Positions 25,826 to 55,873 of a DNA stretch of 64,000 bases are shown here, in pieces. How positions within the stretch are numbered: position 1 is the first letter of the stretch; every line of letters begins with the position of its first letter. The stretch is from Trueperaceae bacterium (GTDB lineage: Bacteria > Deinococcota > Deinococci > Deinococcales > Trueperaceae). The stretch covers positions 1 to 64,000 of the forward strand of contig JAXHNB010000006.1 in the NCBI GenBank assembly GCA_034520945.1, written 5' to 3'. Under the pieces are notes generated by a model. The model searched no databases. It was not told where the DNA came from and saw only the letters and a program-made list of their open reading frames with translations. The position numbers and the translations under genes are program-made.

Positions 25826-27112
25826 TCAAGGCATCGGGTGCCGCGCGGCCAGCGCCGTCACCTCGCCGGCCAACGCCGAGACGTCGGCGTCATCGGCGTC
25901 GTCCGGCATGGTCAGGGCCCGGTCGATCAGGTCGGCGACGGTGACCATCTCGTCGGCCTCGAAGGCGCGGGTGGCCAGCGCCGGCGTGCCCAGGCGGATG
26001 CCCGAGGTCACCCACGGCTTCTCCGGGTCGCCCGGCACCATGCTCTTCGACACGGTGATGTGAGCGCGCTGCAGGCGGGCGTTGGCCTTCTTGCCCGTCA
26101 AGCCCTGACCGCGCAGGTCCAGCACGAAGCAGTGATTGTCGGTCCCGCCCGACACCACGCGGTAGCCGCGCGCCGAGAGGGCGTCCGCCAACGCCGCCGC
26201 GGTGTCGACGATCCGCTGGGCGTAGGCGCGAAACGCCGGCTGCAGCGCTTCGAAGAACGCCACCGCCTTCGCCGCCACCACGTGCATCAGCGGCCCGCCC
26301 TGAATGCCGGGGAAGATGGTGCGGTCGATGCGTTTGCCCAGCTCGGCGTCGTCGCCGAAGATCACGCCGCTACGGGGGCCGCGCAGCGTCTTGTGCGTGG
26401 TGCTGGTCACCACGTGCGCGTGCGGCACCGGGTTCGGGTGCAGGCCCGCCGCGATCAGCCCCGCGATGTGCGCCACGTCCGCCAGCAAATACGCCCCCAC
26501 CTCGTCCGCCACCGCCCGGAACGCCTCGAAGTCCAGAATGCGGCTGTAGGCGCTGGCGCCCACCAGGATCATGCGCGGCCGGTGCTCCCGCGCCAACGCC
26601 CGCACGCTCTCCATGTCGACCCGTTCCGTCTCGGGATCGACCGGGTAGCCCACGATGCGGTAGTCCTGCCCCGAGAAGTTGACCGGGCTGCCGTGCGTCA
26701 GGTGCCCGCCGTGATCCAGGTCCATGCCCATCACGGTGTCACCGGGCTCCAGCAACGCCCGGTAGACCGCCATGTTGGCGCTGCTGCCCGAGTGCGGCTG
26801 CACGTTGGCCCAGGACGCCCCGAACAGCTCCTTCAGGCGCCGCGACGCCAGCCGCTCGACCTCGTCCACCACCTCGCAGCCGCCGTAGTAGCGCCGGCCC
26901 GGGTACCCCTCGGCGTACTTGTCGGTCAGGACGCTGCCGGTCGCCTCCCGCACCGCCGCGCTGGTGAAGTTCTCCGAAGCGATCAACTCGAGGCCGCCTC
27001 GCTGCCGCGCCTCCTCCCGCGCGATCAGCTCGAACAGGGTCTCGTCGCGTGGCAGCTGAGGCGACGCCTGGTCGGCACGCCCGGCGGCGGGGTCGGATCG
27101 GGACACGGTCAT
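25826..27112 (-). CDS. glyA: Serine hydroxymethyltransferase
   Basis: [48 protein letters not shown]. Confidence 0.97.
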
Positions 27113-27231
27113 ACCGGCGAGGATATCAGGGCCGGATCCCCCGGCCCGGCCGTCGCGCAGCAGCGCACAGCGGGCCCGCGCCTGCCTACGATGGGGGTGA
27201 CGCCCCGCCCCGTGCCTGCCGGAGGTGCCGC

Positions 27232-30200
27232 GTGCCCGCCGACCCCGCCACCGACGCGCCGAGCCCGAACGACCCGCCGCTGCAGCTGCGCCTGCTGGGT
27301 GTGCCGGAGGCCCGGTGGCGTGGGGCGCCGGTGGTGCCGCCGACCCGCAAGGCGCTGGCTACGGTGGCGTACACGGCGCTTCGCGGCGGGTGCGCTACCC
27401 GCGACGAGCTGGCCGAACTCCTCTGGGGCGCCGCCGGCCGCCGCAACGTCCGCCAAGCGCTGCACCGCCTGCGCGCCCTCCCCGGCGCCGACGCCTGGCT
27501 GGAGGCCGGCGAGACGGTCCGCGTGCACGCGGACACGGACGTGGCGGCGTTCGAGGCGGCGTTGGCCGACGGCGACGCCGCCCGCGCCGTGGCGCTGCAC
27601 GACGGCCGCACTCTCCTGGAGGGCTTGAACCCGCGGGCCGCGCCCGCCTTCGAAGCGTGGCTGGAGGAGGCGCGCGCCCGGCTCCAGGGCCGCTTCGCCG
27701 AAGCGCTGCGCACGCTGGCCGGGCAGCAGGAACGCGCAGGCCAGGCCGCCGAGGCCCTGGCGACCAGCCGCCGCCTGCGCAGCCTGGACCCCCTCGACGA
27801 GGCGAATCACCGCCGCATCATGCGCCTGGCGTGGGGGGCCGGCGACGTCCAGGCCGCCTGGCGCGCCTACGAGGAGTGTCGCCGCACGCTCCGGGAGGAG
27901 CTCGGCGTCGACCCGACCGAGCCGACCCAGCGCCTGGCCCGCGCCGCGTTCCACGGCCGGCGCGACACGCGGCGCCGCGCGCGCCGCGTCCGGCGCGGCG
28001 CGCCGCCGCCCATGCCGCGGGCGCTGCTTCGCCCCCCGGTGCTGGCGGGGCGCGAGGCCGCCTGGCGCCAACTGGCCGCGACCTGCCGCGAGGGGCGCGT
28101 GGCGGTGCTCAGCGGCCCGGCCGGCATCGGCAAGACCCGCCTGATGATGGACTACGGCCAGGCACGCGGGCGGATCCTGCTGGCCAGCGGCCACGCCGGC
28201 GACGACGCCGTCCCGCTCGCCAGCTTCACGCGCGCCCTCCGCGACTGGTTCGAGGCGGTGCCCGAGCTGCAGGGCGCCCTCCCGCCCTGGGTCCGGCGCG
28301 AGGCGGCGCGCCTCGTCCCGCTCAGCGACGCCGCACCCCCGGAGCCCGTCGGCTCCGAGGAGGAACGCGCCCGCTTCGCGGGCGCCATGACCGAACTGAT
28401 CCGCCGCGTAACCGCTCACGCCGACCTGATCGGGATCGACGACCTGCACGCCTTCGACGACGCCAGCCGCGACCTGATGCTGCGCGCCTGCGCCGAGCTG
28501 AGCGCCCGACATGCCGGCGGCGCCGAGGCGCACGCGCACCTGGTCGCCTGCCTCCGCAGCGACGAGCCCACCCCTGCGCTGGCGCGTGCCCTGGCGCGCC
28601 AGGAAGGGGCCGGCACCGCGACGCGCGTCCCCCTGGCGCCCCTGGACCCAGACGGCGTGGCGGCCCTGCTGGACGGCATGGGCTACCCCGGCGGCGCGCT
28701 GGCGGCGGCGCTGCACCGCCACGCGGGCGGCACGCCGCAGCTGTTGATCGAGGTTCTCAAGGACCTCCACGAGCGCGACCGGCTTCCCCCCGACGCGGAC
28801 GAGATCGGCGCGCACGGCGTGGAGGGCGCCCTGCCGGCCCGCGCGGGCGCCATGATCGGCGGGCGCCTGGCGCGGCTTCCCGCCGCCAAGCGGGCCCTAT
28901 TGGAGGTGCTGGCCGTGCTGGGCACACCCGTCGAGGCGGAGGTGCTGGCCGCCGCACTGGACCGGCCCGAGGCGGAGGTGCGCCAGCAGGTCGCGCGGCT
29001 GGAGGCACGACAGTTCCTGGAGGCCGGGCGACCCGCGCACGAACTGCTGCGCGACACCGTGCTGTCCAGCCTCGCGGAGCCGGCGCGACGCGGCTGGCAC
29101 CGCCGGATCGCGCACGCCCTGGAGGCGCGCGGCGCCACCCCCGCCCGCATCGCGCATCACGCCTGGGAGGCGGGCGCGCCCGCCTGGGCGCACGCCCGCT
29201 GGCTGGAGGCCGCCGAACGCGCCCACGCGCAGGGAGCCACCGAGCAGGCCCGCACCTGGCTGGCCGACCTGGCCGCGTCGGACGATGTCTCGCCCCAGCT
29301 GCGCGCCCGCGCGCTGTTGCGTTTGGGCCGCCTGCGCATCGACCGGGACGTCGCGGCCGCCGGCGCCGACGTGCAGCGCGCCCTGGACTTGGCTCGCTCG
29401 GTCCACGACGTCGCGTTGGAGCCGTGGTGCCTGCTGGCCGCCGCCGACGTGGCCACCTTCGCCGGCTCCTCGGACCAGGCGGCGGCGCGGCTGGGGGAAG
29501 CCCGCAGCCTGGCGCGCGAGGTGCTGGAGGAGGGCGAACGCGACGCACTCGTGCAGGCCGCGACCGGCGTCGCCTGGGCGCTGGGCGACTTCGCCGGCAC
29601 CGAGCGCGGCATCCACGCCGCCCTGGCGCGCCAGCCCCGCGCGCGCGAGCCACGCCTGAACCTGGCGATGCTGCGCTGGCACCAGGGCCGCTTCCGCGAG
29701 GCCGCCGCGCAGCTCACGGCCCTGCTGCGCGACGACCCCGACGCGGCGCAGGTCACGCTGCTCTACCACGACCTGGGCGTGGCGCAGTGGACGTTGGGTC
29801 GCTTGGACCGGGCCGCCTGGTACCTGCAGCGAAGCCGCGAGGTTTGGGACGACTCCGGCAACACCTACGCCGAAGCGATGACGGCGATGGCCTGGGGCAC
29901 GCTGGACACCAGCCGGGCGCGCCTCGACGCGGCCGAGCAACAGCTCCGGCGCGCCCGCGAACTGTTCGAGGCGCAGGGCAATCACGTCCGCAGCGCCGAC
30001 GTGGACGTGCGCCTGGCCCACGTCGCGCATCACCGCGGCCACGATGCCGACGCGCGCAGCCTGTGCGACCGCGCCCAGGCGCGCCTGGCCGACGTCCACT
30101 TCCCCTACCTCACCAGCTACCTGCACGCCCTCAGTGCGGTGAACCACGCCCGCCGGGGCCATGCGGCCTGCGCCCAGCGCGAGGCGGCCACCGCCCTGGA

Positions 30201-30531
30201 CGAGGCGCGCGAGACCCGGCACGGCTTGGCGCTGGTGCTGGCCTACCGCGCCGTAGCCGAGGTGGCGTTGCTCACGAACGACGCCGCCACGGCCCGCGCC
30301 CACGCCTGCTGCGTCACCTCCCTGGCGCGCCGCCACGAGATGCCCGAACACATGGGCCACGGCCTGCTGCTGGAGGCCCGCGCCCGCGCGGACGACGCGC
30401 CCGGCGGCGCCGCCCAGCACGCGCGCCACGCGTGGCAGGTGGCACGCGCGCACGACCTGGCCCAGCTGGCGTCGGCGGTGGCCGACGTCCTGCCCACCCT
30501 CGAGGGGGCGCAACCGGACCGCGTCTTGTGA
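27232..30531 (+). CDS. SARP/AfsR-like regulator: wHTH-BTAD + P-loop ATPase + TPR
   Basis: [43 protein letters not shown]-terminal TPRs; GGAGG RBS. Confidence 0.88.
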
Positions 30532-30559
30532 CGCCCCTGTAACGGTCGCTTCCTATCCT
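30527..30559 (+). promoter_or_regulatory. SARP-type heptamer direct repeat TGTGACG-N4-TGTAACG, 9 nt before -10 TATCCT
   Basis: 11-bp period repeat at 30527-30544; TATCCT at 30554-30559. Confidence 0.6.
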
Positions 30560-30612
30560 GCCCCGCGACGCGTGAACGTGGGCCCGGCCCGCGCGCGGGA
30601 AAGGACCCGAAC

Positions 30613-33063
30613 ATGCCGAGCCATCCTTGGAGACTTCTTACGAAACCGCGGCGCACCGCCGCCTGCCGCACCTCCCCCTGGCGGGGGGCCGCCCGGCTCG
30701 TCACCCTCGCGGCCCTCCTGACCGCCCTGTTGGCGGCCTGCAACGGCGGCGGCGGGGGCCTCTCGGTCGGCCTCTCGCAGGACGCCCTCGAGATCGGCCG
30801 CGGCGAAGCAGGCGCCGGCACCATCACCGTGACCCTGCAAGGCACGGACGGCGAGCCGGCCACGCTGAGCGTCGATGGCGCCCCAGGCGGCGTCGCCGCC
30901 ACCTTCGACCCCAACCCCGCCAGCAGCGAGAGCACCCTCACGCTGCAGGCCGACCTGGACGCCGAGGGAAGCGAATCGACGCTGAGCGTGCGCGCCACCC
31001 GCGGCAGCGCCGAAGCCACCGCCGAGCTGGCGCTCACCGTCCAACCGAACCCGGCCCTGGTCGAACGCTACAGTCGCGAGCCCGGCGAGGTCCGCACCCT
31101 CACCGCCGGCGGCGTCGAACTCACCTACGAGCTCATCGACGGCCTGGTCATCTACCAGGGCGACATGGTCCTCGGCACGCCCGCGGAGGCCGAAGCGTTC
31201 CTCGAGCGGGCCGCCGCGGGCGGCGGAGACGCCCTGTCCGCCCAGGGGATCGGCCTGAAGGACGACATCGACCGCTGGCCGAACGGCGTGGTGCCCTACG
31301 AGATCGACGTGGACGAATACGATCCCGCCAACCGCAGCGCCATCCAGGACCTGGTGGATCGCGCCGTGGCGCACATCGAGGACCGCACCCACATCGACAT
31401 GCGCCCCCGTTTCGGGCAGAGCGACTACCTGCGGCTCATCCCGCCCGACGACGCCCGCGTCTGCGGATCCTCCGCCGTCGGCATGAAGGGCGGACGGCAG
31501 ACCCTGCGCATGAGCGCCGGCTGCAGCATGGGCACGCTGGTGCACGAGATCCTGCATGCCCTCGGCGTCGCGCACGAACAGTCCCGGTCCGACCGCAACG
31601 CCTTCGTGAACGTCAACTTCTCGAACCTGGCCGCCATCGACCTGCGCAACAACCTCACCATCGCGCCCACCGACGTGTTCAATGACTACGGCGCCTACGA
31701 CTTCGACTCGATCATGCACTACCCGGCCTTCATCGGTTCGTGGAGCGTCGATCCGAGTGTCCCGCTGATCACTCCCACCGACCCCAGCATCTCCCTCGGC
31801 CGCCTGGGCCAACGCAGCGGCCTCAGCGACGGCGACGTCACCGCCCTCTGCGAGTTCATGTACCAAGGCATCGGGCCGAACGTGTTCGTGTCCTCGCCCG
31901 CCGACGGCGCCACCTTCGAGGTAGGCGACACCGTGCAGCTCATGGGCCGCATCGAGAGCCGCTTCGGGGTGCAGGAGCCCTACCTGGCCCGCTGGGTCAG
32001 CGACGTCGACGGCGAGCTCCGCCGCGCCGGCTACCCCACCGGCGTGATCCGCATCGACGACCTCTCGCCCGGCACGCACACCCTCACGCTGGAGAGCCGC
32101 ACCGGCTGCGACGACGACGCCGATTCCGTCACGATCACGGTCACCGGCGACGCTTCGATGCAGATCGCCTCGCCCAGCGACGGCGCAAGCTACGAGCGCG
32201 GCGTGGAGAGCGTGCTGCTGCGCGTCACCACCGAAGGCTTCCCCGACCCGCCCGAGGTGTCCTGGGAGAGCGACGTCGACGGCGACCTCGGCACCAGCAG
32301 CGAGGAACTGTCCCACCTCGACCTCTCCTACGGCGACCACACCATCACCGCCACCGCCACCGCGCCCAGCGGCGCTACCCTCAGCGATTCCGTCGACATC
32401 ACCATCACCAACCGCCCGCCCAGCGTCGAGATCATCCAGCCCGCGGACGGCGCGAGCTTCTGCGAGGACGAGGACATCGACTTCCGCGCCAGCGTCACAG
32501 ACCTCAACGAACTGCCGGACCGCACCGTGCCCCCGAGCGACGTCGACTGGCGCGTCGACGAAGGCGCCCCCTTCGCCACCGGCAAGGACGTCACGCGCGC
32601 CTTCGCGTCGAGCGGCACGCGCACCGTCACCGCCCGTGCCACCGACGCCCAGGGCGAGACTAGCGAGACCAGCGTCGCGGTCGAGATCGTCGAATGCAGC
32701 GACCAGCCCCCCGACCACGTGGCCATCACCGAACCCCCCGAGGACAGCGGGCCCAGCGACTCCAAGTACGTGCACGACGGCTACGACGAGAGCCGGAACC
32801 AGTGGTACACCGACGTCCAACTCGAAGGCGAGGCGACCGACCCCGAGGACGGTACGCTCACCGGCAGCGACCTGATCTGGACCACCGACCGCAGTGATCT
32901 GCAGGACCCCGAGCTGGGTACAGGCGAGAGTCTCACCGTCCGCCTGTACGACGACAACGACGCCTGCAGCAGCGACACGCACGCGGTGACGTTCACCGCG
33001 ACCGACAGCGACGGGAACGCGCGAAGTGCGGTCCGTCGCATCACCATCTGGACGTTGTGCTGA
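30613..33063 (+). CDS. Astacin (M12A) metalloprotease lipoprotein with Ig/PKD-like repeats
   Basis: LAAC lipobox; YQGDM propeptide motif; WPNGVVPY, HEILHALGVAHEQSRSDR, SIMHY Met-turn; repeated SPxDGA...WxSDVDGxL. Confidence 0.9.
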   Translation: MPSHPWRLLTKPRRTAACRTSPWRGAARLVTLAALLTALLAACNGGGGGLSVGLSQDALEIGRGEAGAGTITVTLQGTDGEPATLSVDGAPGGVAATFDPNPASSESTLTLQADLDAEGSESTLSVRATRGSAEATAELALTVQPNPALVERYSREPGEVRTLTAGGVELTYELIDGLVIYQGDMVLGTPAEAEAFLERAAAGGGDALSAQGIGLKDDIDRWPNGVVPYEIDVDEYDPANRSAIQDLVDRAVAHIEDRTHIDMRPRFGQSDYLRLIPPDDARVCGSSAVGMKGGRQTLRMSAGCSMGTLVHEILHALGVAHEQSRSDRNAFVNVNFSNLAAIDLRNNLTIAPTDVFNDYGAYDFDSIMHYPAFIGSWSVDPSVPLITPTDPSISLGRLGQRSGLSDGDVTALCEFMYQGIGPNVFVSSPADGATFEVGDTVQLMGRIESRFGVQEPYLARWVSDVDGELRRAGYPTGVIRIDDLSPGTHTLTLESRTGCDDDADSVTITVTGDASMQIASPSDGASYERGVESVLLRVTTEGFPDPPEVSWESDVDGDLGTSSEELSHLDLSYGDHTITATATAPSGATLSDSVDITITNRPPSVEIIQPADGASFCEDEDIDFRASVTDLNELPDRTVPPSDVDWRVDEGAPFATGKDVTRAFASSGTRTVTARATDAQGETSETSVAVEIVECSDQPPDHVAITEPPEDSGPSDSKYVHDGYDESRNQWYTDVQLEGEATDPEDGTLTGSDLIWTTDRSDLQDPELGTGESLTVRLYDDNDACSSDTHAVTFTATDSDGNARSAVRRITIWTLC

Positions 33064-34981: not shown

Positions 34982-35911
34982 GTGGACGAGCGTCAGCATC
35001 AGCAGATCGCGCGCTGGGAGCGTGCCTGGTTGGCGGTGTCCGGCCTGATGACGCTCATGTTCGTGCTGCTCATCGCCTACAACCTGGCGGTGGAGGGGGC
35101 CCACATCGCGCAGCGGACCGACAAGGCCACGCCCGAGCAGATCCTGGCGCAGGACCTGTTCGCCGAGCCGGGGGTGCGGGCGGCGGGGCCCGGCCGGGTG
35201 CAGGTGACCAGCGTGGCGCAGGCGTTCAACTTCCAGCCGTCCGACATTCGCGTGCCGGTGGGCAGCGAGGTGGAGTTCTACCTCACCAGCCGCGACGTGA
35301 TTCACGGGTTTCAGGTCGAACGGACCAACATCAACGTCGAGGTCATCCCCGGCGAGGTCTCGCGCCTGCACTACACCTTCCGCGAGCCGGGCACCTACCG
35401 CGTCACCTGCAACGAGTACTGCGGCATCGGGCACCACGACATGCTGGGCACGGTCACGGTGGTGCCGGCGTCGCAGTGGCGCGCGCAGGCCGACGAGGCC
35501 GCGCCTGCCGATGACGAGGCGGACGGGGCGCCGGGTGGCGCCGAGGTGTACGCCGCCAACTGCGCGTCCTGCCACCAGGCGCAGGGGCAGGGCATTCCCG
35601 GCGCGTTCCCGCCGCTGGCGGGGCACGCCGCCGACCTGTTGGAGACGCAGGGGCGGGACTACCTCCCGTTGGTGCTGTTGTACGGACTCGAGGGACAGAT
35701 CGAGGTGGAGGGCGCCAGCTACGCCGGGGCGATGCCCGCCTGGGGGCAGTTGTCCGACGGGGCGTTGGCGGCGGTCAGCAACTACGTGCTGGAGGAGCTC
35801 AGCGCTGAGGACCTGCCCGAGGACTTCGAGCCGTACGCCGCCAGCGAGTTCGCCGAGGCGCGCGGGCAGGGCCTGTCCGCGTCCGACGTGCACGCGCGGA
35901 GGACCGAATGA
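34982..35911 (+). CDS. cbaB: ba3-type oxidase subunit II fused to a C-terminal cytochrome c552-like domain
   Basis: Single TM; DVIHGF and CNEYCGIGHHDM CuA ligands; CASCH, GQGIPGAFPPLAGH, GAMP. Confidence 0.92.
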   Translation: MDERQHQQIARWERAWLAVSGLMTLMFVLLIAYNLAVEGAHIAQRTDKATPEQILAQDLFAEPGVRAAGPGRVQVTSVAQAFNFQPSDIRVPVGSEVEFYLTSRDVIHGFQVERTNINVEVIPGEVSRLHYTFREPGTYRVTCNEYCGIGHHDMLGTVTVVPASQWRAQADEAAPADDEADGAPGGAEVYAANCASCHQAQGQGIPGAFPPLAGHAADLLETQGRDYLPLVLLYGLEGQIEVEGASYAGAMPAWGQLSDGALAAVSNYVLEELSAEDLPEDFEPYAASEFAEARGQGLSASDVHARRTE

Positions 35912-37596
35912 GCGACATGACCGCGACGAGCGCGACGACGACCCCCCGTTCCGAGGTGACCGGCCTGCGCGGCGAGCGGCGGGTCACCTTCGCCTTCCTG
36001 CTCACCGGGCTGATCGCGCTGCTTGTGGGGGCGCTGTTGGGGCCGCTGCAGGCGCTGAACTACGGCGGCATCGACCTGTACCAGTACCTGCCGTGGCTGC
36101 AGTCGTACTACCAGGGCCTCACCCTGCACGGGGTGCTGAACGCGCTGGTGTTCACCACCTTCTTCAACGCGGGCGTGCTGTTGTACCTGCCGGCGCGGGA
36201 GCTGGACGTGCGCATGAACCTGGGGTTCGTGTGGGCGTCGTACGGGGTGATGGTCGGGGGTCTCGCGATCGCCGGCCTGGCGATCCTGTCGAACACCTCG
36301 AACGTGCTGTACACCTTCTACCCGCCGCTCTCGGGGCACTGGGGGTTCTATCTGGGCTTGGCGCTGGTGGTGGTGGCCAGCCTGATGGTGGCGGCGGAGA
36401 CGCTGCGCCTGCGGCACGCCTGGCGGCGGGCGAACCCCGGCAAGGTCACGCCGATCGTGACGTACATGGCGGTCGCCACGCAGCTGATGTGGATCCTCGC
36501 CTCGGTCGGGATCGTGGTCGAGGTGGTGGTGTTCCTGCTGCCGTGGTCGCTGGGGTGGATTCAGGGCGTCGACCCGGGCTTGGCGCGGACGCTGTTCTGG
36601 TGGACGGGGCACCCCATCGTGTACTTCTGGCTGCTGCCGGCGTACATCAGTTGGTACACGCTGGTGCCGAAGCAGGTGGGGGGCACGCTGGTGTCCGACC
36701 CGCTGGCGCGGCTGGCGTTCCTGATGTTCCTGTTGTTCAGCACGCCGGTCGGGTTCCACCACCAGTTCACCGACCCGGGCATCCCGGCTGGGTGGAAGAT
36801 GGTGCACTCGCTGCTGACCATGTTCGTCGGCATCCCCAGCCTGATCACCGCGTTCACGGTCGCCGCCTCGATGGAGATCGGCGGCAAACGGGCCGGCGGA
36901 CGGGGCGTGTTCGGCTGGATCGGCAAGCTGCCGTGGCGCGATGCGGCGTTCACCGCGCAGGCGTTGGCGATGATCGCGTTCATCTTCGGCGGGGCCGGGG
37001 GGATCGTGAACGCCAGCTTCAACCTCGACATCCTGGTGAACAACACCGCCTGGATCCCCGGGCACTTCCACCTGACCGTCGGCACGGCGGTGACGCTGAC
37101 GTTCTTCGGCATGACCTTCTGGCTGGTGCCGCACCTGACCGGCAAGCGGCTGTTCTCGAACGGCCTGGCGTTGGCGGCGTCGTGGACGTGGTTCGTCGGC
37201 ATGATGGTGTTCGCGCTCGGCATGCACTGGCAGGGCATCCTGGCCGTGCCGCGCCGCGCCCTGATCAGCGCCGCGCCCGAGGGCACCTACGCCGACGCCT
37301 GGCTGCCGATGGTGTTCACGGGCGTCAGCGGCGTGATCCTGCTGGTGGCGGTGGTGCTGTACTTCACGGTGCTGTTCGGGACGCTGTTCGCCCGTTCCAG
37401 CATGAGCGAAGACGAGCGGCCCGCCATCCCGTTCGTCGAGGCCGCGTCGTTCGAGCGGACCGGCCTGCTCAGGCTGCTGGACTCGCTGTACGGCTGGTTC
37501 GCGCTGGCGTGCCTGCTGGTCGCCGTCGCCTACCTTCCGACGCTGATCGACATGCTGCTCAACCAGGTGCCGATCCAGCGGTACCAGCTCTGGTAG
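35908..37596 (+). CDS. cbaA: ba3-type (B-family) heme-copper oxidase subunit I
   Basis: QGLTLHGVLN, VLYTFYPPL, FWWTGHPIVYFW, GFHHQF, GHFH, VPRR. Confidence 0.95.
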   Translation: MSDMTATSATTTPRSEVTGLRGERRVTFAFLLTGLIALLVGALLGPLQALNYGGIDLYQYLPWLQSYYQGLTLHGVLNALVFTTFFNAGVLLYLPARELDVRMNLGFVWASYGVMVGGLAIAGLAILSNTSNVLYTFYPPLSGHWGFYLGLALVVVASLMVAAETLRLRHAWRRANPGKVTPIVTYMAVATQLMWILASVGIVVEVVVFLLPWSLGWIQGVDPGLARTLFWWTGHPIVYFWLLPAYISWYTLVPKQVGGTLVSDPLARLAFLMFLLFSTPVGFHHQFTDPGIPAGWKMVHSLLTMFVGIPSLITAFTVAASMEIGGKRAGGRGVFGWIGKLPWRDAAFTAQALAMIAFIFGGAGGIVNASFNLDILVNNTAWIPGHFHLTVGTAVTLTFFGMTFWLVPHLTGKRLFSNGLALAASWTWFVGMMVFALGMHWQGILAVPRRALISAAPEGTYADAWLPMVFTGVSGVILLVAVVLYFTVLFGTLFARSSMSEDERPAIPFVEAASFERTGLLRLLDSLYGWFALACLLVAVAYLPTLIDMLLNQVPIQRYQLW

Positions 37597-39511: not shown

Positions 39512-41554
39512 ATGTCGGAACTCAGGAACGTAGCCGTCCTGTCGCACAGTGGCGCAGGCAAGACCTCGCTGGTGGAGGCGATGCTCTACCGCGCCGGGGC
39601 GATTACCGAGATGGGACACGTCGAGGAGGGAAGCACCGCCTCCGACCGCCTGCCCGAGGAGGTGCGGCGCAAGATCAGCATCACCTCCACCATCCATCCG
39701 ATCACGTGGCAGGGTCACCCGTTCAACCTGATCGACGCGCCCGGCTACGCCGACTTCGTGGGCGAGATCCGGGGCGCCCAGGCCGCCGCCGACGCGGCCC
39801 TGATCGTGGTGTCGGCCGTGTCCGGCGTGGCGGTCGGCACCGAGCGCGTGTGGACCGCCAGCGCCGAGCGCGAGCTGTCCAGCATGTTCGTGATCAACAA
39901 GATGGACCGCGAGAACGCCGACTTCTTCCGCACCATGTCGGGCATCGAGCAGAGCCTGGCCGGCAACATCGCCGCCATTCAGGTGCCGATCGGCCAGGCC
40001 GAGGACTTCCGCGGGCTGGTGGACGTGCTGCACATGCGCGCCTACGTGTGGCCGGAGGGCACGCCGGTCGAGGTCGACATGCCGGACGAAGTGGCCGGCG
40101 TGGCGCAGGAGTACCGCGAGCGCCTGATCGAATCGGTCGTCGAGACCGACGACGACCTGATGATGCAGTACCTCGAGGACGCCGAGATCTCCGCGGAGGC
40201 CATCGCCCGGGCGTTCTACGCCGCCGTGCGCGGCGGGCAACTCACCCCGGTGCTGCTCACCTCCGCCGAGCGGGCGATGGGCGTGTCGATGCTGCTGGAC
40301 TTCATGGCCGAAGGGGTCCGCTTCGTCGAGGATCACGCCCCCCTGCCGGTCGTTCAGGGCGACCCGCCGGTGCTGGGCGAGGACCAGCCGTTTTCGGCGC
40401 GCGTGTTCAAGACCACCGTCGACCCCTACCTCGGCAAGATCAACTACCTGCGCGTGCTGTCCGGGGTGCTGCGCGCGGGCGACACGGTGCTGGACACGAC
40501 GCAGCAGTCCAAGGTGCGGCTGAGCCACCTGTACGTCCCCAAAGGGCGCGAGGTGAGCGAGGTCAAGGAGCTCCGCGCCGGCATGATCGGCGCCATCACC
40601 AAGGTCGAGGCGGTGCATACCGGCGACACCCTGGCGGCGGAGGAGCGCCCCTTCACGCTGCAGCCGATCCGCTTCCCGCCGCCGGTGATGGCGGTGGCGC
40701 TGGAGCCGGCCACCCGCGCCGACGACGACCGCATGGGCGACGCGCTCCACAAGTTGTTGGAGGCCGACCCGACGCTGGCGCTGGAACGCAACCCGGAAAC
40801 GCGCGAGACGGTCCTGTGGGGCATGGGCCACGTGCACCTCGAGGTGTCCATCGCGTTGATGAAGGAACGTTACGGCGTGAACGTCGCCCACCGTCCCCCC
40901 AAGGTCGCCTACCGGGAGACCCTGCAGGGCCAGGGGGAGGCCCGCTACCGCCACAAGAAGCAGAGCGGCGGCGCCGGGCAGTTCGCCGAGGTGGCGCTCC
41001 GCGTCGCCCCGGGCGAGCCGGGCTCGGGCCTCACCTTCGCGTGGGGCGTGGTAGGCGGCGCCATCCCGACGCAGTTCCAGACCAGTTGCGAGAAGGGCGC
41101 CCAGCAGGCCATGCAGGGCGGCGTGCTGGGCGGGTTCCCCGTCTCCGACGTGGCGGTGACGGTGTTCGACGGCAAGCACCACCCGGTCGACAGCAAGGAC
41201 GTCGCCTTCCAGATCGCGGCGGCGCAGGCGTTCAAGGAGGCGGTGCTGCAGGCCGACCCGGTGCTGCTGGAACCGGTCGCGCTGCTGAAGGTGCGCGTGC
41301 CGGACCGCTTCACCGGCGACGTGATCGGCGACCTGAACGCGCGCCGCGGCCGCATCCTCGGCATGGACAACGAAGGCTCGGTGTCGACCGTCAGCGCGCA
41401 CGTGCCCGAGGCGGAACTCAGCGCCTACTCGCCCGAACTGCGCTCGCTGACCGGCGGGCGCGGGGCGTTCTCGCGCAAGTTCGATCACTACGCGGCCGTG
41501 CCGCAGCACCTGGCGGACAAGATCCTCGAGGAGGCCCGCGCGGCGGCCAACTAG
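39512..41554 (+). CDS. fusA2: Elongation factor G paralog (EF-G2)
   Basis: SHSGAGKTS, RKISI, DAPGYADF, NKMD, KKQSGGAGQF, HPVDS; not in an rpsL-rpsG-tuf context. Confidence 0.9.
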   Translation: MSELRNVAVLSHSGAGKTSLVEAMLYRAGAITEMGHVEEGSTASDRLPEEVRRKISITSTIHPITWQGHPFNLIDAPGYADFVGEIRGAQAAADAALIVVSAVSGVAVGTERVWTASAERELSSMFVINKMDRENADFFRTMSGIEQSLAGNIAAIQVPIGQAEDFRGLVDVLHMRAYVWPEGTPVEVDMPDEVAGVAQEYRERLIESVVETDDDLMMQYLEDAEISAEAIARAFYAAVRGGQLTPVLLTSAERAMGVSMLLDFMAEGVRFVEDHAPLPVVQGDPPVLGEDQPFSARVFKTTVDPYLGKINYLRVLSGVLRAGDTVLDTTQQSKVRLSHLYVPKGREVSEVKELRAGMIGAITKVEAVHTGDTLAAEERPFTLQPIRFPPPVMAVALEPATRADDDRMGDALHKLLEADPTLALERNPETRETVLWGMGHVHLEVSIALMKERYGVNVAHRPPKVAYRETLQGQGEARYRHKKQSGGAGQFAEVALRVAPGEPGSGLTFAWGVVGGAIPTQFQTSCEKGAQQAMQGGVLGGFPVSDVAVTVFDGKHHPVDSKDVAFQIAAAQAFKEAVLQADPVLLEPVALLKVRVPDRFTGDVIGDLNARRGRILGMDNEGSVSTVSAHVPEAELSAYSPELRSLTGGRGAFSRKFDHYAAVPQHLADKILEEARAAAN

Positions 41555-41567
41555 CGCGCGCAGGCGC

Positions 41568-42404
41568 TCACAGCGCCGCCAGTTGTTCCTTGACGTCCTC
41601 GGCCAGCTCGCGGCCCAGCTGCTCCGCCTCCTTGGCGTCGCCGCTGACGCTGGCTTGCAGGCTGCGGCCGTCCTCGGCGACGGCGCCGAACAGGCGCATC
41701 TCGCCGTCTTCGCTGACCGAGGCCAACGCCCCCACCAGGTGCCCGTCCAGGGCGGCGGCGAAGGCGCGTTCGGCGCGGACGCGGTCGTAGCTGGGGCGGT
41801 GTTGCAGGGTGTACGCCAGTTCGAACGCCAGGTCGTCGTTTTCCTGCACCAGCAGCCCCAGCGCGCCCTGGCCCGGCGCCGGCGCGAAGGTTTCGGGCTC
41901 CAGCAGCGCGTCGATGCGGTTGCGTTGGTCCAGGATCCACAGCGTGGCGCCCGGCAGGATCAGCGCCTGCAGCTCGTCCCGGGTCATGCGGGCCAGGTCG
42001 TCGTCCAGCGAGGTGCCCAGCGGCAGTGAGCGAAGGTCGGGGCGGAGCGCCCGCAGGAAGGCTTCGTCGCGGCCCTCCCGCACGCCGACGACGCTGCCGG
42101 CCGCCAGGCCGGCCAGCTCCTTCGCGCGGCGGGAGACCAGCGCGCATCGCGGTTCGAGGCGACGGGCGACGGCGGCCAGCACCACGCCGCCGGGCAGGGC
42201 GGGCGGCAGCGTGTCCAGGGGTTGCACGGCGATGCCGATCGTTTCCTGCGCCAACGCGTCGGCCAGGGCCGCGGGGGCGTCCGCACGGACCGTCTTCTGG
42301 GTAATCTGGACGTCGGGCCATTCGGCGTTCAGTTCCGTGAGGACGGACCGCGCCTGGCGAAGTGCCACGGCGCCGTCGCGATTCCCCATCACGATGCGAG
42401 CCAT
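41568..42404 (-). CDS. HemC (porphobilinogen deaminase) homolog lacking catalytic and cofactor residues
   Basis: RPDL, PAPGQGALG, AERAF and overall colinearity with HemC; HSxKD, TSSxRR, RGNxxTR and GGC motifs absent. Confidence 0.85.
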   Translation of the reverse strand: MARIVMGNRDGAVALRQARSVLTELNAEWPDVQITQKTVRADAPAALADALAQETIGIAVQPLDTLPPALPGGVVLAAVARRLEPRCALVSRRAKELAGLAAGSVVGVREGRDEAFLRALRPDLRSLPLGTSLDDDLARMTRDELQALILPGATLWILDQRNRIDALLEPETFAPAPGQGALGLLVQENDDLAFELAYTLQHRPSYDRVRAERAFAAALDGHLVGALASVSEDGEMRLFGAVAEDGRSLQASVSGDAKEAEQLGRELAEDVKEQLAAL

Positions 42405-42553
42405 GACCTCGTTCTATCACAGTCGCGTACCGGGGGCGCACGGCACCTGCCGCGTGCCCGGCGCGCTCCAACCTGCGCTGGCCGGAGCGTGGCCTAGCGG
42501 TGCGCGTCGATGACGGGTCCGACGGCGTCGACGGTCCGGCGCGCATCGTCGCC

Positions 42554-43729
42554 TCAGCCCTGCGCCGCCGCCGCCTGTTGCAGGTCCGCCACCCGGTCGG
42601 TGCGTTCCCAGGGGAAGTCGTCCCGCCCGAAGTGCCCGTAGCTGCTGGTCGGCACGTAGATGGGGCGGCGCAGGTCCAACTGCTCGATGATGGAGGCCGG
42701 CCGAGCGTCGAAGGTGTCCCACACGATGCGGGATAGGGTTTCGTCGGACAGGCGCGAGGTGCCGAAGGCGTCGACGTACAGCCCGACGGGTCGGGCGACG
42801 CCGATGGCGTAGGCCATCTGCACCTGGCAGCGGCGCGCCAGGCCGGCCGCGACCACGTTCTTGGCGATGTAGCGTGCGTAGTAGCTGCCCGAGCGGTCGA
42901 CCTTGGTCGGGTCCTTGCCGCTGAACGCGCCGCCGCCGTGCGGCACGGCGCCGCCGTAGGTGTCCACGATGATCTTGCGGCCGGTCAGGCCGGCGTCGGC
43001 CTGCGGCCCGCCGCGCACGAAGCGGCCGGTGGGGTTGATGTAGTAGGTGGTGTCGGGCGTGACCAGGTCGGCGGGGACGACCGGCCCCACCACGTGCGCG
43101 AGCACGTCGGCGCGGAGCTGCTCGATGTCGATGTCGTCGCTATGCTGCGCCGAGATCACCACCGCGTCGACGGCGGCGGGGGTGTCGCCCTCGTAGGCGA
43201 TGGTGACCTGCGCCTTGCCGTCCGGCCGCAGGTAGGGCAGGGTGGCGTCCTTGCGGACGGTGGCCAGGCGCTGCGCCAGGCGGTGCGCCAGCGTGATCGG
43301 CATCGGCATCAGCGCGGTGGTGTCGTCGCTGGCGTAGCCGAACATGATGCCCTGGTCGCCCGCCCCGATGCGGTCGAAGCGATCGCCGCTGCCGGCGTCC
43401 ATGGCGCTGTCGACGCCGCGGGCGATGTCGGGCGACTGTTCGGTGATGGCGATCAGGACCGAGGCGTGGTCGGCGTCGATGCCGTAGGAGGCGTCCACGT
43501 AGCCGACCTCGCGCACGGTCTCGCGCACGATGCGTTGCAGGTCCACGTACCCTTCGCAGCGGATCTCGCCGGCGATGAGGGCCAGGCCGGTGGTGAGGAT
43601 CGTCTCCGCCGCGACGCGGGCGTCGGGGTCGCGTTGCAGGATGGCGTCCAGCACCGCGTCGCTGATGCGGTCGGCGAGCTTGTCGGGGTGTCCTTCGGTG
43701 ACCGATTCGGCGCTGATGAGTCGTCGCAC
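42554..43729 (-). CDS. metK: S-adenosylmethionine synthetase
   Basis: [39 protein letters not shown]. Confidence 0.97.
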
Positions 43730-43886
43730 GGCATCCTCCAAGCGGAACGCGGGTGGACGCGCGCCCGTTGCGGAGGCGCGCATCGGTGCGCCTGCGCCGG
43801 CGTTCGCCCGCTCCAGTTCGGGAATGCTACCAGAGCCGCCCCCGCGGGCCATCGCCCGCCCGCGCGCCAGCCGCTACACTCGGGGA

Positions 43887-44450
43887 GTGGACGCCTCCCG
43901 GCACGCGACCGCTACACCGCCCCCGAACGCCGCGCCCGTACGGATCCGCGCCGCCACGCCCGGCGACGCGCGCGCCCTGGCGGCGTTGATGGAGGGAATC
44001 TACCGCGAGGGACGGTGGTTCGTGGGGGACGAGGGGCCCACGTCGGGGCTGCTGGCGCGCCGCCTGCGCGGGCTGGATCCGGCGCGGGAGCTGATGCTGG
44101 TGGCGGAGGCGGGGGCCGCCCCCATCGCGTGGCTGGAGGCCGGCCGGTACCTGCCGCGCCGCTTGGCCCACGTGGCCACCCTCACCCTGGGGGTGGCGCC
44201 GGAGTGGCGGGGCCGCGGCGTGGCGACCCGCCTGCTCCGTGCCGCCCTGCCGTGGGCGCAGCGGGTAGGGGTGGCCAAGCTGCGCCTGGACGTGCGGGCG
44301 GGCAACAGCGCCGCGCGGGCGTTGTACGAGAAGGAGGGGTTCGTGCTGGAGGGCCGCGAGGTGGGGCACGTCCGCACCGAGGGCGGCTACGAGGACAACC
44401 TGTTGATGGGCCGCTGGATCGGGGGCGAGGCGCCGGCGGACGGCGGCTAG
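43887..44450 (+). CDS. GNAT family N-acetyltransferase
   Basis: VAPEWRGRGVA, NSAARALYEKEGF; TACACT-N6-GTG. Confidence 0.9.
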   Translation: MDASRHATATPPPNAAPVRIRAATPGDARALAALMEGIYREGRWFVGDEGPTSGLLARRLRGLDPARELMLVAEAGAAPIAWLEAGRYLPRRLAHVATLTLGVAPEWRGRGVATRLLRAALPWAQRVGVAKLRLDVRAGNSAARALYEKEGFVLEGREVGHVRTEGGYEDNLLMGRWIGGEAPADGG

Positions 44451-44492
44451 GGCGGGCGGCGCGGTCGGGTCGCCCGGCCGGTACACTGCCGC

Positions 44493-45026
44493 ATGCCGGA
44501 GGCGAACCCTGCCGAGTGGCCCGCGCAGCGCGTGGGGCTGTTCGTGGACACGCAGAACCTGTACTACGCCGCCCGCGACGGCCACGGGCGGCACGTGGAC
44601 TACGCGCGGCTGCTGGTGCACGCCGCGCGGGGGCGGCGCCTGCAGCAGGCCAACGCCTACGTGGTCGAGCGGGAGGGCGAGCGCGCCGCCTACGGCTTCG
44701 TGACCAAGCTGTCCGCCCTCGGCTACCGGGTGCACCGCCGCACGCTGCGGGTGCACCGCGCCGACGACGCCGGGCGCACCGTGATGGAGGGCGACTGGGA
44801 CATGGGCATCGCCGCCGACATGGTTCGTGCGTGGGACGCGCTGGACGTGCTGGTGCTGGCCAGCGGCGACGGCGACTACGTGCCGATGCTGGCGCTGGCG
44901 CAGGAGCGCGGCGTGCGCGTCGAGGGGATGGCGTTCCGCAGCACCACCAGCCAGGCGCTGATCGACCGGGTCGACCGGTTCGACGACCTCGCGGCGATGG
45001 AGGGGATCTTCGTCGGGGCGGAGTGA
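44493..45026 (+). CDS. NYN domain (LabA/DUF88) protein
   Basis: FVDTQNLY, GDWDMGIAAD, LASGDGDY. Confidence 0.9.
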   Translation: MPEANPAEWPAQRVGLFVDTQNLYYAARDGHGRHVDYARLLVHAARGRRLQQANAYVVEREGERAAYGFVTKLSALGYRVHRRTLRVHRADDAGRTVMEGDWDMGIAADMVRAWDALDVLVLASGDGDYVPMLALAQERGVRVEGMAFRSTTSQALIDRVDRFDDLAAMEGIFVGAE

Positions 45027-54897: not shown

Positions 54898-55092
54898 TAC
54901 CGACCAGCCTACTCCGGATTGGCGCTGCGCGCGTCGCCCAAGCACGTGCCGGCGACCGGGCCGGCGCCACGCCGGCCGGGGCGAGCGCGTGGATCGCGGC
55001 CGCAGGCCGCGTGATATCGTCTTAGCAGACCGCGTTCCGCAGGCGGGGCCTCCCCGCGCCGCCGCCTAGGGAAACCCGAGGAGGTCATGCGT

Positions 55093-55452
55093 ATGTACAG
55101 GGGACGCGAAGGCCAATGGGCCTTCATTTTTCACCGCCTGTCGGGCGTGGCGCTGGCGTTGTACCTGCTGCTCCATGTGATCGACATCAGCTTGGTGATG
55201 TACGGGCCCGACGGCCCGTTCAACGCGTTCTTGGCCTTCTATCACCAGTGGCCCTTCCGCGTGGGCCTACTGTTGGTGATCGCGGGCGTGGTGTATCACG
55301 GCCTGAACGGCCTCCGCATCATCTTGATGGACTTCACCGGTTGGGGGGTGCGCTACCAGGGCGCCCTCTGGTACGGCGTCCTGGGTCTCACCACCGTGAT
55401 CGGCATCCCGGTGCTGATCAAGATCGTGCCCGAGATCGTCGGAGGCGCCTGA
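55093..55452 (+). CDS. sdhC: Succinate dehydrogenase cytochrome b556 subunit
   Basis: MYRGREGQWAFIFHRLSG, YHGLNGLRIILMDF. Confidence 0.92.
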   Translation: MYRGREGQWAFIFHRLSGVALALYLLLHVIDISLVMYGPDGPFNAFLAFYHQWPFRVGLLLVIAGVVYHGLNGLRIILMDFTGWGVRYQGALWYGVLGLTTVIGIPVLIKIVPEIVGGA

Positions 55453-55453
55453 G

Positions 55454-55873
55454 ATGGCCACGCGCCCCCGCACCTTCCAGCAGGCCCGCAGCACGTATCG
55501 CACCAACCCCGAGTTGGCCTGGTGGGTGTTCATGCGCATTTCGGGCATGTTGTTGATCTTCCTGGCGTTCGCCCACGTGTTCTTCAACAACATCCTGATC
55601 GACGCGGCCACCATCGACTACGAGTACGTCGCCGAGCGCCTCAGCCAGCCGGCGGTGAAGGTGTTCGACACCTTCTTGCTGGGCCTCGCCATGTTGCACG
55701 GCACCAACGGCCTGCGCTACTCGGTCGAGGACTACGTCCGGCGCCCCGGCCGCCGCTTCTGGACCAAGACGATCCTGTACACCCTCGCCGCCATCATTTT
55801 CGTGCTGGGCGTCATGACGCTGTGGGCGTTCAGCTACGACGAGATGGGCGCCGCAGTCCAGGCGCTCGACTGA
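55454..55873 (+). CDS. sdhD: Succinate dehydrogenase membrane anchor subunit
   Basis: [23 protein letters not shown]. Confidence 0.92.

Follow-up and report, generated by a model that had tools for sequence, protein, structure and literature searches.

A Trueperaceae HemC-like protein with a conserved hydroxymethylbilane synthase fold and a dismantled active site

The window analysed here is a stretch of 64,000 nucleotides (nt), positions 1 to 64,000 of contig JAXHNB010000006.1 of a Trueperaceae bacterium (GCA_034520945.1). Our subject is a HemC-like gene on its minus strand, which lies directly behind metK and ends close to a convergent gene for an EF-G-like GTPase (Table 1). The open reading frame (ORF) of the HemC-like gene begins with ATG, with a GAGG found 5 nt ahead, and runs over 278 codons with no interruption. 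Its GC content at third codon positions (GC3) is 0.91, compared with 0.94-0.95 in the flanking genes. The Pfam domains PF01379 and PF03900 both match the protein and occur in the canonical HemC order. A phmmer comparison with Escherichia coli HemC (PDB entry 1pda) gives an E-value of 3.3e-25, and the homology of the window protein to HemC is far above chance level. The score on the TIGR00212 equivalog profile is 128.9 bits (121.7 in the genome scan), which is under the cut-off of 164 bits. The protein is annotated as hydroxymethylbilane synthase by the JGI pipelines and as hypothetical by NCBI.

Table 1. Features of the HemC-like locus, in window positions
Feature	Position	Strand	Evidence or score
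HemC-like coding sequence P0001, 278 amino acids plus TGA stop	41568..42404	-	ORF, profile, phmmer and fold evidence
PF01379 match (HemC domains 1-2), residues 46-191	41832..42269	-	E 6.2e-25, 88.4 bits, cut-off 22.1
PF03900 match (HemC C-terminal domain 3), residues 208-272	41589..41783	-	E 3e-6, 27.9 bits, cut-off 26
Lid (active-site) loop deletion, about 14 residues, between residues 44 and 45	42270..42275	-	
Codons R112-D113 (R131 kept, R132 replaced by Asp; both invariant in 120/120 family members)	42066..42071	-	
metK (S-adenosylmethionine synthetase) ORF, directly upstream	42554..43852	-	
Spacer between metK and the HemC-like gene, 149 nt	42405..42553	-	
Gene for an EF-G-like GTPase, convergent with the HemC-like gene, its end 14 nt away from the stop of the latter; conserved neighbour	39512..41554	+	

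The fold of HemC is kept. An AlphaFold2 model of the window protein, built from 61 family sequences, has a predicted local distance difference test score (pLDDT) of 95.4 and a predicted TM-score (pTM) of 0.91. Its top Foldseek matches are E. coli HemC, with a query TM-score (TMq) of 0.90-0.92, a root-mean-square deviation (rmsd) of 2.0-2.3 Å and 31-32% identity. Among the lower-ranked matches are SsuA, TauA, MetQ and OxyR regulatory domains (TMq 0.41-0.50, rmsd 5-9 Å), a similarity that is common to every HemC. Profile searches of the window protein gave no sequence-level family match to type II periplasmic-binding-protein-like binders.

The active site, however, is dismantled. For E. coli HemC (EC 2.5.1.61; PF01379 and PF03900; TIGR00212; PDB entries 1pda, 1ah5, 1ypn and 2ypn), excerpts of one study (PMC3945110) describe a dipyrromethane cofactor thioether-linked to C242, an active-site loop formed by residues 40-63, resting-cofactor contacts by K83, R132 and R155, and a set of conserved arginines, R11, R131, R132, R149, R155, R176 and R232. 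According to the same excerpts D84A/N is inactive, R131L/R132L has cofactor-binding defects with loss of the cofactor, and R11H, R149H, R155H, R176H and R232H are detrimental. We numbered the residues by the ungapped HMMER/phmmer alignment to 1pda, in which the query residue plus 19 gives the E. coli number. In this alignment H80, S81, M82, K83 and D84 become Q61, P62, L63, D64 and T65 of the window protein, S128/S129 become R109/E110, and R132, R149, N151, R155, R176 and C242 are replaced by D113, G130, S132, D136, I157 and L223. The positions of K83, R132 and R155 are thus all acidic. Retained are R131 (R112), Q198/G199 (Q179/G180) and R232 (R213), and the equivalents of R11 and Q19 are found as R9 and Q17 in a MAFFT alignment. 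Just R11, R131 and R232 of the seven conserved arginines are therefore kept. The RxDPR, PAPGQG and AERAF motifs are shared with the E. coli enzyme. Within the PF01379 match, the strings QPLDT (residues 61-65), VREGRD (108-113) and GTSLDDD (130-136) mark the degenerate motifs, and PAPGQG (175-180) is retained. The lid segment, for which we used the E. coli lid of about residues 40-63 including D50, K55, K59 and F62, has only 8 residues, whereas the canonical copies of the genus have 21-22. The former cofactor turn (residues 219-226, LDGHLVGA) has no cysteine, and the sole cysteine of the protein, C87, is unconserved in the family, in which serine is the commonest residue at that position.

Seven defining features of HemC are testable in the window protein. 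The Pfam domain pair in order and the three-domain fold are present, while the 164-bit equivalog score, C242, D84, the conserved arginine set and the active-site loop are all missing. With five of the seven features lost, we do not class the protein as a hydroxymethylbilane synthase, despite its JGI name. The sequence-only reading had described an intact ORF of normal codon bias, colinear with HemC (RPDL, PAPGQGALG, AERAF), in which the lid was deleted, HSxKD, TSSxRR and RGNxxTR had turned into QPLDT, VREGRD and GTSLDDD, C242 was gone from the string ALDGHLVG, several arginines had become Asp and the scaffold was kept. This description stands. All the strings are present in the protein, the alignment to 1pda restores neither D84 nor C242, and the change from Arg to Asp is exact for R132 and R155, with K83 also replaced by Asp.

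We next consider the family as a whole, for which residues were counted over 120 Trueperaceae HemC-like sequences. The position of D84 is never occupied by Asp, its six commonest states being T, A, G, R, S and L. No cysteine exists anywhere in 81 of the proteins, and none in the turn region in 111. The lid measures 8-9 residues in 75 members. R149 is kept in 10 members and R176 in 8, which are small numbers against the retention of R11 (118), R131 (120), Q198 (118), G199 (119) and R232 (120). At the same time K83 is replaced by Asp or Glu in 118 of the 120 and R155 in 82, and R132 is Asp in every one. A170 is changed to Pro in 111 members, and R176 to Ala, Val or Ile in 89. The three positions that are now acidic are the same three that the excerpts of PMC3945110 list as contacts of the resting cofactor. 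These counts indicate that the cleft has been rebuilt, and not left to drift or randomised. In nine of the proteins (P0052, P0054, P0055, P0059, P0076, P0079, P0081, P0091 and P0116, the window protein not among them) an insertion with a CxxC pair is found in the old cofactor-turn region; in one subclade this may be a site for a metal or for redox chemistry.

A whole-assembly family search found a second HemC in the genome of the window (G000), located at C1:58994-59785 on the minus strand, which scores 266.9 bits on TIGR00212 and carries HSFKD, TSAVRR, RGNVPTR and GGCQ. This canonical hemC sits between hemA-like and hemD-like ORFs, with hemB and hemE just downstream, in a hemA-hemC-hemD-hemB cluster. 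Several haem proteins are encoded in the window itself, namely cytochrome oxidase subunits II and I (34982-37596), a cytochrome P460 (49564-50148) and a succinate dehydrogenase cytochrome b (55087-55873).

The distribution of the HemC-like gene was determined with the window protein as query against 102 sampled Trueperaceae genomes, its own genome excluded and one genome (G256) flagged as unpublished included. Matches at E <= 1.4e-40 identify 81 carriers. The next weakest match has an E-value of 1.2e-21, so the split between carriers and non-carriers is clean. The carriers spread over more than 25 genera, and 80 of the 81 copies are free of stops. The remaining copy (G292:C7:1510042-1510878) has an in-frame TAG, either as a recent pseudogene or by sequencing error. 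Nei-Gojobori dN/dS against the window gene, which is meaningful only in comparison with metK, is 0.25-0.34 in four species of the same genus, and the metK values are 0.29-0.36 in three of the four loci; the alignment of metK leaves out the row of L010, whose reference contained a stop. In the two closest pairs of the sister genus g8 the HemC-like gene gives 0.125 and 0.134 versus 0.08 and 0.129 for metK. At longer range, dN of the HemC-like gene is about 1.5-2 times that of metK. By this comparison, the HemC-like gene is constrained at short range about like an essential housekeeping gene.

One might regard the gene as a neutral relic, a redundant hemC that decays slowly after its displacement. 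The 21 genomes that lack it, the in-frame TAG and the long stem branch of the family (0.84 substitutions per site) would be in line with such a decay. But neutral decay does not account for intact copies in nearly all carriers across so many genera or for a dN/dS in close pairs as low as that of metK, nor for the very confident AlphaFold2 model, the fixed and non-random charge swaps and the persistence of the gene in genomes where no haem pathway is found (see below). We consider this explanation effectively excluded, with only very long odds left to it.

The persistence is clearest in genus g8. Here the only HemC is a sub-cut-off one (85-102 bits), with no canonical hemC found, in three of three tested genomes, one of which is a single contig rated 98% complete. 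Moreover, no match to ALAD (hemB) and none to URO-D (hemE) was found in four of four g8 genomes. The dead HemC is carried by all 14 sampled genomes of this genus. Across the family, hemB is found in 85 of 111 genomes, with 0/9 in g8, 0/5 in g33, 0/1 in g21, 1/3 in g6 and 4/9 in g12. Genomes with no hemB match include G150, G151, G168, G170, G175 and G183 of g8, G275 of g33, G201 of g21 and G134 of g6. The hemB-less lineages still encode COX1, that is, haem-copper oxidases (5/5). Since no haem pathway is found in them and haem-copper oxidases are encoded, they presumably import haem, and judging by their gene content these Trueperaceae seem to be haem auxotrophs whose respiration depends on haem from outside. 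The opposite case is seen in some Trueperaceae genomes, G176 and G242 among them, where the canonical hemC of the hem cluster type and hemB are present and the dead copy is absent. A gene that is kept where no haem pathway is found and absent from some haem makers is expected to have a role which is neither porphobilinogen deamination nor tied to early tetrapyrrole intermediates.

From the haem proteins of the window, the sequence-only reading had argued that the cell needs a second hemC or imports haem, and it had taken the losses as something other than random decay. Both branches of the first argument are borne out. The second hemC exists in the hem cluster of the same assembly, and haem import appears to be realised in sister genera that keep the gene and gave no match to hemB, to hemE or to a canonical hemC. 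The view on decay agrees with the intact copies and with a dN/dS similar to that of metK (about 0.13 in the closest pairs). In the same light we can judge whether the protein could still work as a porphobilinogen deaminase, by means of an active site of an unusual kind. Its whole fold, the retained R11, Q19, R131, Q198 and R232 and its JGI name would speak for this. However, there is no cofactor cysteine, no D84 in any of the 120 family members and no lid, and the excerpts of PMC3945110 give D84A/N and R132L as inactivating in E. coli. In addition, a canonical hemC is present in the genome, and the gene persists in genomes in which hemB, needed to make the substrate, is not found. A working deaminase is effectively excluded as well, and we hold it to be the least probable of all explanations considered here.

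A comparison of the window protein with other HemCs points to its origin. It is 33% identical to the active HemC of its own genome (E 2.5e-12), but 46-50% identical to the single hemC product of Thermus-like genomes (E about 1e-56) and 35-44% identical over the full length to that of Deinococcus-like genomes. In a tree of 45 rows (IQ-TREE, LG+C20+F+G4), one clade (100/100) unites all stand-alone Deinococcota-type copies, whether active or dead. Inside this clade, family f4 and the Thermaceae form one group (97/95). The Deinococcus-like copies group with the degenerate set (95/99) that consists of G187, a genome of the Deinococcus-like family, family f5 and all Trueperaceae, and in this set the copies of f5 and G187 are sister to the Trueperaceae clade (95/99). 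The dead copies of Trueperaceae are the most derived, with the stem of 0.84 substitutions per site mentioned above. The second copies of Trueperaceae, f5 and two Meiothermus-like genera are found elsewhere, amid bacterial HemCs unrelated to them, and form a clade of their own (100/100) on a long stem (1.03). We call these active second copies operon-type; the operon-type copy of the window genome is annotated as hydroxymethylbilane synthase. A protein search for relatives of the operon-type hemC gave 120 matches at 60-96% identity, four of which carry an NCBI organism name, in each case a member of Trueperaceae. The tree thus indicates that the dead copy is the vertically inherited ancestral orthologue and not a young duplicate, a point which goes beyond the sequence-only reading.

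The canonical stand-alone copies of the Thermus-like genus g36, of f4 and of the Deinococcus-like family f2 share with the window protein the one clade and the motifs WP[DE], LDxRNRID, PAPGQGALG and Hx PSxDR. They differ in being the sole hemC of their genomes and in having kept the lid, HSLKD, TSSxRR, RGNVDTR and GAGC. Degenerate stand-alone copies are also found in the Meiothermus-like Thermaceae genera g37, g39 and g40, in f5 and in one f2 genome (G187). The Thermaceae ones are sister to the canonical copies of Thermus and have a common hemC-fur-folC-like gene order with them. A tree constrained to unite all 22 degenerate rows is worse by 46.1 log-likelihood units, with p = 0.014 in the approximately unbiased (AU) test for a group that was named after the tree was seen. 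Several changes are common to the independent lineages: the lid is lost or shortened, the canonical cysteine is lost, R149 is lost, and RGNVDTR is turned into xGD[VIL]DDx. It appears from the tree that the stand-alone copies degenerated at least twice, in parallel within the phylum, which is also a new point with respect to the earlier description.

Compared with the Trueperaceae proteins, the degenerate copies of Thermaceae and f5 are less degenerate and score 195-252 bits on TIGR00212, which is over the cut-off. Of the degenerate copies outside the Trueperaceae, most keep R131/R132, several keep D84 or K83, and none shows the metK linkage. A canonical second hemC is present in all five tested genomes of g37, g39, g40 and f5, being operon-type in four of them, and the window genome and its genus also hold a canonical second hemC. 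The second hemC of g40 (G171:C7:342316-343254, L072/L073; sequence partly masked) groups with other bacterial HemCs, outside the operon-type clade. In G187 the only HemC is a lid-less and Cys-less copy of 204.8 bits (G187:C1:97637-98485, L057/L078), and no hemB or hemE was found in this genome; G243, of the same genus, holds hemB as well as a canonical copy. To be noted, in the Thermaceae and f4 a gene for a Fur-family regulator of 131-144 amino acids comes after the stand-alone hemC in the same orientation, no matter whether this hemC is canonical or degenerate. A gene for a Mur-ligase/FolC-like protein of 413-414 amino acids comes after fur in three of the four loci (L043:4233-6835, L047:3657-6335, L052:5535-6945 and L048:5722-8364). 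This conserved linkage of hemC and fur is possibly relevant to the function that was retained.

With the homology, the fold, the loss of defining residues, the purifying selection and the persistence where no porphobilinogen pathway is found all observed, we favour the reading that the window protein is a catalytically dead and cofactor-less HemC, a pseudoenzyme kept under selection for a non-enzymatic job, and give this reading a probability of roughly 60%. The second, distinct hemC in the hemA-hemC-hemD-hemB cluster does the enzymatic work in this family, and the displaced stand-alone copy is now without five of eight basic residues, the catalytic Asp, the cofactor Cys and the lid loop. In the mechanism we propose, the Asp and Glu carboxylates of the protein itself would replace the acetate and propionate groups of the cofactor and pair with the retained arginines. 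Such a salt-bridge lock would stabilise the protein in its apo (cofactor-free) state and would be consistent with the comparable acidic changes seen in the other degenerate lineages. We infer that the apo protein may act as a soluble cytoplasmic binding or regulatory protein.

Several observations weigh against this reading. The absence of the gene from 21 of the 102 sampled genomes and the one copy with an in-frame TAG suggest that it is dispensable in some lineages. The positions of H80, S81, S128, S129, R149, N151 and R176 vary freely among the 120 members. Such free variation at most of the old cleft positions fits an unused cleft, and fits a specific cleft ligand less well. Furthermore, our alignments reveal few family-specific invariant residues beyond those common to canonical Deinococcota-type HemC, and thus no evident new interface. 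Finally, a GC3 of about 0.9-0.95 compresses dS, which makes the absolute Nei-Gojobori values unreliable and leaves only the comparison with metK.

A non-enzymatic job in haem or porphyrin binding, as a chaperone, buffer or sensor, would be a more specific explanation. The equivalents of R11, R131 and R232 together with Q19 and Q198 would hold the two haem propionates in the cleft, now less basic than in the enzyme and also more hydrophobic. The scaffold evolved to bind pyrrole carboxylates, and all five cleft residues that are still present contact pyrroles according to the excerpts available on E. coli HemC. The hydrophobic replacements are common or near-fixed, as seen for A170 and R176. In addition, genera that keep the gene and in which no haem pathway is found still encode haem-copper oxidases and must handle imported haem, and haem- or iron-related neighbours exist in other lineages, namely fur in Thermaceae and a ResA/TlpA-like redoxin with CcdA in genus g9. 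These neighbours, however, come from other lineages and not from the window locus. The conserved acidic residues D/E64, D113 and D/E136 should repel propionates, and the alignment shows no His, Cys, Met or Tyr that has become conserved in the cleft as a candidate axial ligand. Of the 21 genomes that do without the gene, the two tested (G176 and G242) have canonical hemC and hemB. We therefore regard a haem binder as doubtful.

A few polar residues that lie in the cleft or close to it are invariant (R9, R112, D113, Q179, H202, R203, S205, D207 and R208), and together with the strong purifying selection they could also be taken as signs of a new enzyme, whose different catalysis is independent of the dipyrromethane cofactor. 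Most of these residues are also present in canonical Deinococcota-type HemC and look like scaffold. Moreover, no new conserved nucleophile is seen and the old catalytic positions vary, which makes a new enzyme very improbable.

In most Trueperaceae loci metK precedes the HemC-like gene in the same orientation, with 20-150 nt between the two, and an EF-G-like gene converges on the latter. The orthologue alignments start about 40 codons into the metK ORF of the window, so its real start is probably near 43732. Simple scans detected no terminator-like or sigma-70-like site in 41300-44300. At the gathering threshold no Rfam family matched anywhere in the window, nor did any reach E <= 1 within 41300-44600, and no SAM (S-adenosylmethionine) riboswitch was detected ahead of metK. 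From the gene arrangement, transcription of the HemC-like gene together with metK is plausible and probable.

In another explanation the protein would be a sensor or carrier, with a re-charged cleft (Arg on domain 1, Arg-Asp on domain 2) that binds a cationic or zwitterionic metabolite or a divalent metal in the manner of the type II periplasmic binding proteins. In view of the metK linkage, which is conserved across most of the family, the ligand might be related to methionine or SAM. HemC domains 1-2 do have the type II binding-protein fold, as reflected by the SsuA, TauA, MetQ and OxyR matches described above, although this likeness is generic to all HemCs. The invariant R9, R112, D113 and Q179 face the old ligand cleft, and independent lineages acquired the acidic cluster 134-136 together with D/E64 and D113 in parallel. 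Against this, variation is found at most of the remaining cleft positions, and the analogy with Arg/Asp pairs for amino-acid binding is a tentative one. Nor is the operon linked to SAM control by a riboswitch or any other Rfam element. A sensor or carrier of this kind is quite doubtful in our view.

Two further searches were made. An ESM Atlas feature search with the HemC families left out gave a best score of 0.88 for archaeal clusters, under the 0.9 level set for a lead, and was dropped. No fused longer forms of the protein were found at E <= 1e-20, which is weak evidence. Some other gene arrangements are also worth recording. In genome G156 of g9 (L056:4849-7130) the HemC-like gene is located away from metK and is followed on the same strand by a gene for a TlpA/ResA-like thioredoxin-fold protein and a CcdA/DsbD_TM gene of cytochrome c maturation type. 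In the window itself, positions 27049-33063 on the plus strand encode a regulator of 1160 amino acids with BTAD, AAA_16 and TPR domains and then an astacin-family metallopeptidase of 816 amino acids with Ig-like domains. Astacins are uncommon in bacteria.

Returning to the dead HemC and its non-enzymatic job, this job might be older than the loss of activity. Besides its catalysis, the stand-alone HemC of Deinococcota may from the start have served another, non-catalytic role, for example in sensing tetrapyrrole, iron or metal status or relaying it to a regulator such as the Fur-family protein whose gene is its neighbour in Thermaceae. An ancient second job would explain why the chemistry was lost in parallel beside another hemC, why the cleft was re-charged in the same way and why the protein persisted for long where no haem pathway is found. 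We put this idea forward as a tentative one and rate it about as doubtful as the haem binder. If it is true, HemC would have given rise to a new class of signalling or binding proteins, with the window protein as the most derived representative.

In the open-access literature that was searched, neither a HemC pseudoenzyme nor this paralogue was found to be described. A parallel is offered by HemW, which is likewise a homologue of a haem-pathway enzyme that has been kept as a binding protein without the ancestral activity. HemW is a HemN-like haem chaperone and differs in its unrelated radical-SAM fold and in that its haem binding has been shown experimentally, whereas that of the window protein is hypothetical. 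In kind, the window protein would be a pseudoenzyme derived from a metabolic enzyme, with an unusual history of displacement, parallel loss and persistence where no haem pathway is found.

HemC is usually treated as a single-function and universally conserved step of tetrapyrrole synthesis. A conserved dead HemC can make haem-auxotrophic Trueperaceae seem hemC-positive, and pathway reconstructions for these bacteria need to be corrected accordingly. The family also offers a clean natural experiment in the origin of pseudoenzymes, in which an orthologue appears to have been displaced, the same elements were lost in two lineages, and the charges that bound the cofactor have been replaced by carboxylates of the protein itself. 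The finding points to a further cellular role of the HemC scaffold in Trueperaceae, which can be addressed in the cultivable Truepera radiovictrix.

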